Of a DNA stretch of 39,222 nt, positions 25,165 to 25,938 are shown one piece after another (the first letter of the stretch is position 1; each line of letters opens with the position of its first letter). Location of the stretch: the IMG/VR virus record IMGVR_UViG_2690316149_000015, positions 1 through 39,222 of that record; one strand, 5' to 3'. The notes under the pieces were generated by a model. That model was not told where the DNA came from. It was given only the letters and a program-made list of their open reading frames with translations, and made no database searches. The DNA is from a virus. Taxonomy: Duplodnaviria > Heunggongvirae > Uroviricota > Caudoviricetes. The position numbers were made by a program, and so were the translations under genes.

Positions 25165-25938
25165 TCAAAAATTAGGTGAGTAACGGACCGGGGACATAGC
25201 TCCTTTTTTTCTTAATTCATCTGGTATTTTTTTTCCAAGATAAAGATTTGCTATTTCAGGTGGGGCTTCTCGACCTTCAAAACCATAGCGAGAACTTTGT
25301 GTTGCCTCAAAGTCCGGATCCTCGTCCCAGTATTTCATCGTAGGGAAATTTTCACGTGTTGATTTGAGCCATTTATCAGCAATGAAAACCCCTCGAACGA
25401 TCCCCCTTACAGTAGCAAGAATGACTTCTGCTTGGCTGGCGCGAGAGACATTAATGCGCCAGCTAAATCGAACCGCATCATAAAGCTCTGAATCCTTTGC
25501 ACTTCTGTTAACGGAAATCATTAATGCTTTATGATGAAATGTTATGGTTTCGGGTTGATATGTTGCTATCAACTCTTTGACATGCGCGGCGCCGAATTCA
25601 TTGCTGCCAGCACCATTCATGATATTCGTTAACCCAGGGTAGGCATCAATAAGTGCTGCTTCAACTTCGTACGCCGTCTTTTCATCAGTCATTCCGTGTC
25701 GATGGATGACATGGATAACCTCAAGTCCTGCTAACCTTATTTCTCTAATTTGCTTTAGCTTGTTGCTCAGTAACTCGTCATCATCAGTCGCTGCCACTTC
25801 ACCGCGCATATGGGCAAATACGCGGTTACCTTTGCCTTTCCCTACATAGAAGGTGCTTCCGTCCCTCGGATCAATCAATCGGTATACATACCAGCCAAGG
25901 TGTTCAATTACTCCAGAAGGAAACTCAGTAATATCCAT
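25165..25938 (-). CDS. GIY-YIG nuclease-domain protein, cargo gene at the prophage end
   Basis: ORF 25165..25989 begins at TTG; the first ATG (25938) gives [43 protein letters not shown], a clear GIY...YIG...R motif. The ~160-aa C-terminal region has no motif I recognise. Confidence 0.7.

Follow-up and report, generated by a model that had tools for sequence, protein, structure and literature searches.

Gene content of the locus

We analysed a 39,222-nucleotide (nt) stretch of viral DNA (Caudoviricetes; IMG/VR record IMGVR_UViG_2690316149_000015, positions 1 to 39,222), hereafter called the window, focusing on a nuclease gene at the right end of the prophage that it carries. This gene, which we identify as that of the anti-phage enzyme CMoRE (PD-T4-3), lies on the minus strand between pin, encoding a serine DNA invertase, and a 3' fragment of the tRNA-Ser gene serU (Table 1). 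Its open reading frame (ORF) spans 25165..25989 when read from a TTG codon, and the first ATG, at 25938, gives a protein of 257 amino acids (aa) whose residues are numbered exactly as in crystallised CMoRE. A second gene with the same translation is present in a tandem copy of the region, and both copies are full-length and intact.

An earlier note, made from the letters of the window alone, had described a 257-aa antisense ORF with an N-terminal GIY-YIG signature and about 160 unassigned C-terminal aa, convergent with pin and separated from it by a hairpin. All of these elements were recovered. The signature string is present, and Pfam placed the LEM-3_GIY-YIG family (PF22945) on aa 28-110 with an E-value that passes the curated cut-off (E=2.1e-14), while the classic GIY-YIG model (PF01541) reached E=0.067 only, under its cut-off. 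For aa 111-257, neither Pfam nor NCBIfam has a matching family, and the NCBIfam search with the protein returned no family. The 61-nt gap between pin and CMoRE contains a 15-pair hairpin (-22.5 kcal/mol, z=-3.63, with 0/200 shuffles as good); this structure, which was not called by a strict terminator scan, is a probable bidirectional terminator.

Table 1. Features of the CMoRE locus in the window, and genes found in the equivalent slot of other prophages.
Feature	Position	Strand	Description or evidence
CMoRE / PD-T4-3 gene, copy 1	25165..25938	minus	257 aa; nuclease ~aa 1-110, modified-cytosine sensor domain ~aa 120-257
CMoRE / PD-T4-3 gene, copy 2	28176..28949	minus	translation identical to copy 1; adjoins undisturbed right flank
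pin, serine DNA invertase	24550..25104 (copy 2: 27561..28115)	plus	97% identical to e14 PinE; pinE annotation in relatives
Hairpin between convergent pin and CMoRE	25104..25145 (copy 2: 28115-28156)		fold energy
Pin-invertible tail-fibre segment, 1.8 kb	22650..24488		crossover sites 22650-22669, 24469-24488
serU tRNA-Ser(CGA) 3' fragment, 62 nt	26118..26179 (copy 2: 29129-29190)	plus	identical to K-12 serU end
thrW (tRNA-Thr) 3' fragment	31029..31053	plus	exact 25-nt match to K-12 CP4-6 right-end fragment
Exact tandem duplication, 2 x 3011 bp	23269..29290 (23269-26279 = 26280-29290)		offset-3011 identity run 3012 nt; self-BLAST 100%
Genes in the slot after pin, other prophages	L006 3986-4633; L011 3604-6325; L012 3494-4552		215 aa; 70/114/343/221 aa; 183-aa DUF2335 + 108-aa protein + 53-aa ORF

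Identity with crystallised CMoRE

The profile searches proposed in the earlier note gave a full-length match to the PD-T4-3 model of PADLOC (PDLC04031, aligned 1-256/256, E=2.4e-140), with Pfam covering the nuclease half only. According to Liu et al. (Nat Commun 2026; PMC12923530), PD-T4-3 was first discovered in strain ECOR68 by Vassallo et al. (2022), whose main text does not contain that name. Liu et al. renamed it CMoRE and crystallised the proteins of Escherichia coli O157:H7 and APEC O1. A phmmer search of the PDB aligned the window protein without gaps to both of them: to the O157:H7 protein (9U75/9U8D) with E=3.7e-172 and 253/257 identical residues (98.4%), and to the APEC O1 protein (9U7U/9U7Z) over aa 1-257 with E=1.1e-150. 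Together with the PADLOC match, this identity bears out the suggestion that the gene is a single-gene nuclease with an anti-phage or restriction-like role. The protein also aligned over its full length with phrog_5356, a family whose function is unassigned in PHROGs, and an identical protein has been annotated, as WP_000355484.1, in other strains.

The four differences from the O157:H7 protein are A51T, D55E, K169Q and H195N, so that only two substitutions fall within aa 111-257. E55 and N195 correspond to the APEC O1 allele; position 51 is A in O157:H7, V in APEC O1 and T in the window protein; and K169Q is found in neither crystallised protein. Every functional residue named in PMC12923530 is retained in both copies of the gene. 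The three tyrosines of the GIYxY-YIG motif, as defined there, are kept (GWY17VY19RL ... TFY31VGKG), as are R80, V92 and L96 (the latter two at the tetramer interface) and Y127, at the published numbering. The acidic loop reads D52-D53-D54-E55, compared with DDDD in O157:H7 and DDDE in APEC O1. The conserved arginine and glutamate of GIY-YIG nucleases are represented by R39 (GKGNR) and by E91 and E93 (AYEVEA), which are the same as in the crystallised sequences; the catalytic glutamate, not numbered in the text of PMC12923530, is presumably either E91 or E93, judging by position.

As for a type IV restriction enzyme, the gene is a stand-alone nuclease without a cognate methyltransferase, its neighbours being pin and the tRNA fragment. 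The closest methyltransferase gene (32020-33090) belongs to a separate island past the thrW fragment, where its partner is an HNH gene.

Reported activity and proposed mechanism

CMoRE reduced the plating of phages T2, T4 and T6 by about five orders of magnitude, with no abortive infection (PMC12923530). In the same study, DNA containing 5-hydroxymethylcytosine (5hmC, or hmC) or glucosyl-5hmC (5ghmC) was degraded, but DNA containing cytosine or 5-methylcytosine (5mC) was not, and T4(C) escaped the enzyme while T4(hmC) did not. The whole T4 genome was depleted, with no strict sequence specificity, and host DNA was left intact. The enzyme was found to be a tetramer that requires two modified sites and cleaves as CN11/N9G, producing 2-nt 3' overhangs. 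Its N-terminal domain carries the GIYxY-YIG motif (Y17, Y19 and Y31) and is autoinhibited by a 15-residue acidic loop, a 4A mutant being toxic and able to cut ordinary DNA; the C-terminal domain, whose fold has no known homologues, binds 5hm-dCTP via the main chain of Y127 (PMC12923530). In addition, PD-T4-3Capno, a Capnocytophaga protein 48% identical to E. coli PD-T4-3, degrades T4 but not T4-GT7 DNA (PMC12366544), and deletion of the native PD-T4-3 gene made E. coli NILS69 more sensitive to Tevenvirinae (10.1101/2024.12.20.629700).

Extrapolating from the 98.4%-identical orthologue, the C-terminal domain of the window protein would bind a flipped-out 5hmC or glucosyl-5hmC, and the tetramer, a dimer of dimers, would need two such cytosines at a spacing of about 21 bp. 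The N-terminal GIYxY-YIG domain would then cut between both modified cytosines (CN11/N9G) to leave 2-nt 3' overhangs, with the acidic loop (DDDE here) over the active site excluding ordinary and 5mC DNA. Incoming T-even phage DNA would thus be destroyed directly and non-abortively, which would protect both the lysogen and its prophage.

Weighing an intact defence gene against other explanations

Overall, we consider the gene to be an intact copy of the known defence enzyme CMoRE (PD-T4-3), which an SfV/e14-like prophage carries at its right end as a cargo gene, or moron, with a probability of about 0.93. Activity of the window allele, including its K169Q substitution, and expression from the upstream region of about 180 bp that separates its start from the serU fragment are what its orthologues lead us to expect. 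Several observations weigh against this interpretation. K169Q falls in the sensor domain, and the allele is predicted to be active by orthology only; a strict sigma-70 scan upstream of the gene, on the minus strand, detected no promoter; and the APEC O1 allele provided weak defence from its native promoter (PMC12923530). Moreover, in XJ55 (L001 6066-6840), the closest full-context relative with 99.7% DNA identity, CMoRE is annotated as frameshifted, which indicates that the gene decays in some lineages.

Most of these observations also feed the rival that survives best, according to which the gene is of CMoRE descent yet silent or inactive here, a decaying passenger of a partly degraded and rearranged prophage region. 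The region is indeed rearranged, with an insertion of the IS3 family of insertion sequences (IS) flanked by a 97% repeat and with the 3-kb duplication, and among relatives, B-JRPT-4119 and O157:H7 contain remnants. Nevertheless, a silent gene appears very improbable: neither copy is truncated or has lost a named functional residue, unrelated strains have kept the identical protein, and the O157:H7 allele, which lies in a more degraded remnant, provided strong defence from its native promoter (PMC12923530).

The earlier note had kept as its main alternative a free-standing GIY-YIG homing endonuclease, which would cut cargo-less prophage alleles and spread by repair-mediated copying. A family labelled 'homing endonuclease' (phrog_314) does match the protein, weakly (E=0.0021) and over the GIY-YIG part alone; homologues in jumbo phages, at 38-45% identity, were named 'putative homing nuclease' by their depositors; and the presence of the same gene in two prophage types shows mobility. 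However, the labels in phage records are depositor annotation and not tests, and the gene lies between pin and the tRNA fragment, outside any intron, intein or conserved gene. The C-terminal half has no Pfam domain, hence no typical DNA-binding module, and a 98%-identical protein is not strictly sequence-specific, requires 5hmC or 5ghmC and spares host DNA. Published biochemistry has largely refuted the homing alternative, which we find scarcely credible. Least probable of all is a UvrC-, Slx1- or LEM-3/ANKLE1-like nuclease that acts in DNA repair or on specific DNA structures, a reading that the RefSeq name of the protein ('LEM-3-like GIY-YIG domain-containing protein') could invite: the similarity is limited to the catalytic domain, Pfam found neither UvrC C-terminal domains nor an Slx1 RING domain, the location is that of prophage cargo, and the full-length family is PD-T4-3, with a demonstrated anti-phage function.

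The slot downstream of pin

The intact CMoRE gene closes the series of phage-type genes in the right arm of the prophage. Between 21778 and 25104, the genes encode a YmfQ-like protein, a tail fibre, Tfa, and then, in inverse orientation, Tfa' and an alternative tail-fibre C-terminus (stf'), followed by pin. This order, ymfQ-stf-tfa-tfa'-stf'-pin and then cargo, is that of the E. coli K-12 prophage e14, whose YmfQ and Pin proteins are 98% and 97% identical to those of the window. DNA homology with e14 stops at the pin stop codon, beyond which mcrA is found in e14 and CMoRE in the window. It thus holds that CMoRE occupies the slot in which e14 carries mcrA, as had been proposed in the earlier note. 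The crossover sites of the Pin-invertible segment form a 20-nt inverted repeat (95% complementary), and a third site, at 27480-27499, was added by the duplication.

Integration in icd, as for e14, was not observed, the right flank of the window corresponding to the thrW/CP4-6 region. Because the head/tail module (5100-22400) shows 96-98% DNA identity to the Shigella phages SfV, SfIV, SfII and SfI, the element is, on sequence grounds, best called SfV/e14-like.

Across 5426 complete E. coli genomes, the CMoRE gene was present in 838 (823 at >=80% coverage, i.e., at least 80%), all at least 95% identical. The interval 25100-26300, which starts at the end of pin and reaches slightly beyond the tRNA fragment, was covered to at least 80% in 808 E. 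coli genomes, and the pinE-mcrA arrangement was found in 330 genomes. Comparison of the slot across e14-like prophages, another check suggested in the earlier note, revealed mcrA, CMoRE or uncharacterised small genes after pin. The last of these occupy the slot in other prophages whose pin is closely related, among the matches listed; in 23CRST009, 24AR0142 and STEFF_1, they encode proteins of 215, 343, 221, 114, 70, 183 (DUF2335) and 108 aa. None of these seven proteins matched PADLOC and, except for DUF2335, none matched Pfam. The slot is established as a defence hotspot for two cargo types only, McrA and CMoRE, and its uncharacterised genes are candidates for unrecognised cargo functions. 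Pin homologues of P2-like prophages were considered as possible instances of the same slot and were rejected, being located mid-genome.

CMoRE was also found outside this context. E. coli C7 (NZ_CP010240.1, L010 4001-4774) carries an identical gene in a pin-less prophage at ssrA, directly after a tail-fibre assembly gene, and possesses two CMoRE copies at different loci. The identical gene in this second type of prophage shows that CMoRE moves between prophage types as a cassette. More distant homologues (38-45% identity) were found in jumbo phages of Serratia, Pectobacterium, Pantoea, Pseudomonas and Klebsiella, and may be used as weapons against rival phages that contain hmC. Full-length examples, in genomes of about 250-285 kb, include those of Serratia phage Moabite (6406-7161) and Pseudomonas phage OBP (158703-159449).

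Ends of the integrated element

The gene had been described in the earlier note as the last one before a tRNA-Ser attachment site (att). The tRNA fragment is genuine: 62 nt are identical to the end of K-12 serU and, in a direct comparison with that gene, 9 nt beyond the fragment also match. ARAGORN found no complete tRNA anywhere in the window, and Rfam registered the fragment indirectly, through an antisense match to a plastid model. Its role as an att site for the window prophage is unproven, and a likelier end is a thrW fragment that the note had overlooked, located 1.8 kb beyond the serU fragment.

In E. coli B-JRPT-4119, the remnant that contains WP_000355484.1 begins with a tyrosine integrase directly beside thrW. 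In RM9387, the sequence found after 31053 in the window directly adjoins thrW on its downstream side; it comprises an HNH endonuclease and a DNA cytosine methyltransferase, then CP4-6-like genes. Given that the integrase adjoins thrW in relatives, and given the RM9387 junction, the integrated block most likely extends from thrW as far as 31053, with the thrW fragment as the putative right att. The serU fragment is probably an internal relic or module boundary and not the end of the integrated block. The flank after CMoRE copy 2 consists of an AraC-family regulator and then an IS fragment, and is found in many E. coli genomes.

Just past the thrW fragment (31382-33090), we observed a gene for a 219-aa HNH endonuclease (PADLOC REase_II, PDLC03478, E=5e-21), which overlaps convergently with a gene annotated as a DNA cytosine methyltransferase in identical loci elsewhere. 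The two are probably a 5mC restriction-modification pair heading a CP4-6-like island. The reported indifference of CMoRE to 5mC would make it compatible with such a pair.

Tandem duplication and other rearrangements

A second feature overlooked in the earlier note is the exact tandem duplication that contains the second CMoRE gene. Positions 23268-26279 equal 26279-29290, with 1 nt of microhomology at the junction. The duplicated unit comprises the 3' part of a tfaP-like gene, the inverted tfa'/stf', pin, CMoRE, the serU fragment and about 100 bp past it, resulting in two identical CMoRE genes, two pin genes and the third Pin crossover site. With one left and two right crossover sites, a 4.8-kb inversion including copy 1 of both pin and CMoRE is formally possible.

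At the junction (26270-26290), the sequence TTTTCTGTTC-A-GAACAGAAAA forms a perfect 10+10 palindrome, so that the unit is bounded by 10-bp inverted repeats. Such bounds at both breakpoints would be unlikely if breakpoints were random, and the 10-bp inverted repeat hints at a duplication mechanism mediated by secondary structure. Pin-mediated recombination was set aside as the cause, the junction palindrome being unlike the crossover sites. The junction string, TTTTCTGTTCAGAACAGAAAA, was found in 0/5426 complete E. coli genomes and in none of the species-representative genomes or metagenome contigs searched; XJ55 has a single copy of the unit with the same outer flank.

We regard it as rather doubtful that the duplication is a real, very recent amplification that doubled the dose of CMoRE (and of pin) under T-even pressure, as opposed to an assembly artefact. 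Dosage is known to matter for this enzyme: defence by the APEC O1 allele from its own promoter was weak, and phage NIC06_P2 is restricted by PD-T4-3/CMoRE on overexpression only.

Elsewhere in the window, a direct repeat (2070-3225 and 5172-6327) is 97.1% identical over 1156 bp. It contains an HNH gene (2084-2434), a small terminase gene (2551-3045, with a second copy at 5653-6147) and adjoining downstream sequence. An IS3-family element lies between the two repeat copies on the minus strand (orfB 3258-4124, orfA 4121-4429). By its appearance, this repeat is either the place where two related prophage segments join or the product of an old duplication.

Significance and comparison with known systems

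CMoRE is already named and has been solved both mechanistically and structurally, so that the enzyme is not new, and the slot context leaves knowledge of the enzyme itself unchanged. Nevertheless, the RefSeq name given to the protein conceals that it is a solved defence enzyme, one encoded by about 15% of complete E. coli genomes. In the post-pin slot of e14/SfV-type prophages, two unrelated type IV enzymes against modified cytosine are found according to the strain, either the HNH enzyme McrA or the GIY-YIG enzyme CMoRE. This modest contextual point is not raised in the main text of PMC12923530, where a term search for prophage, e14, McrA and invertase gave no matches. The slot, with its two enzymes, is a cheap place to seek further single-gene defences, and what remains of mild interest is this slot-level convergence of two type IV enzymes, along with the unexplained exact duplication.

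Among the characterised relatives, PD-T4-3Capno belongs to the same family and likewise carries out modification-dependent degradation of T4 DNA, its catalytic mutants being dead; it differs in that, at high concentration, it also degrades the DNA of phage Mu, which contains mom-modified adenine (PMC12366544). O157:H7 CMoRE has the same length and architecture as the window protein and the same neighbours, a convergent pinE upstream and an AraC regulator downstream, but it is located in a degraded prophage remnant, whereas here the gene is duplicated and lies in a much more complete prophage.

The phages SfV, SfIV, SfII and SfI share a near-identical structural module with the window prophage, relatives of which integrate at thrW. 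In these phages, the cargo position beside att holds O-antigen modification genes. A CMoRE homologue of more than 60% identity was found in 0/50,697 deposited phage records.

The closest parallel in terms of position is McrA (EcoKMcrA) of e14 in K-12, whose gene directly follows pinE in the cargo slot that closes the right arm of e14/SfV-type prophages. Both McrA and CMoRE are single-polypeptide, modification-dependent type IV restriction enzymes that act on modified cytosine. They share no sequence similarity (E=2.4), and their nuclease domains are of the HNH and GIY-YIG types, respectively. Moreover, mcrA is co-directional with pinE, whereas CMoRE is convergent with pin, and e14 is integrated at icd, whereas the window prophage is at thrW. 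McrA, which RefSeq names a 5-methylcytosine-specific endonuclease, acts on phages with non-glucosylated hmC. CMoRE, in contrast, spares 5mC DNA yet cuts glucosylated hmC.
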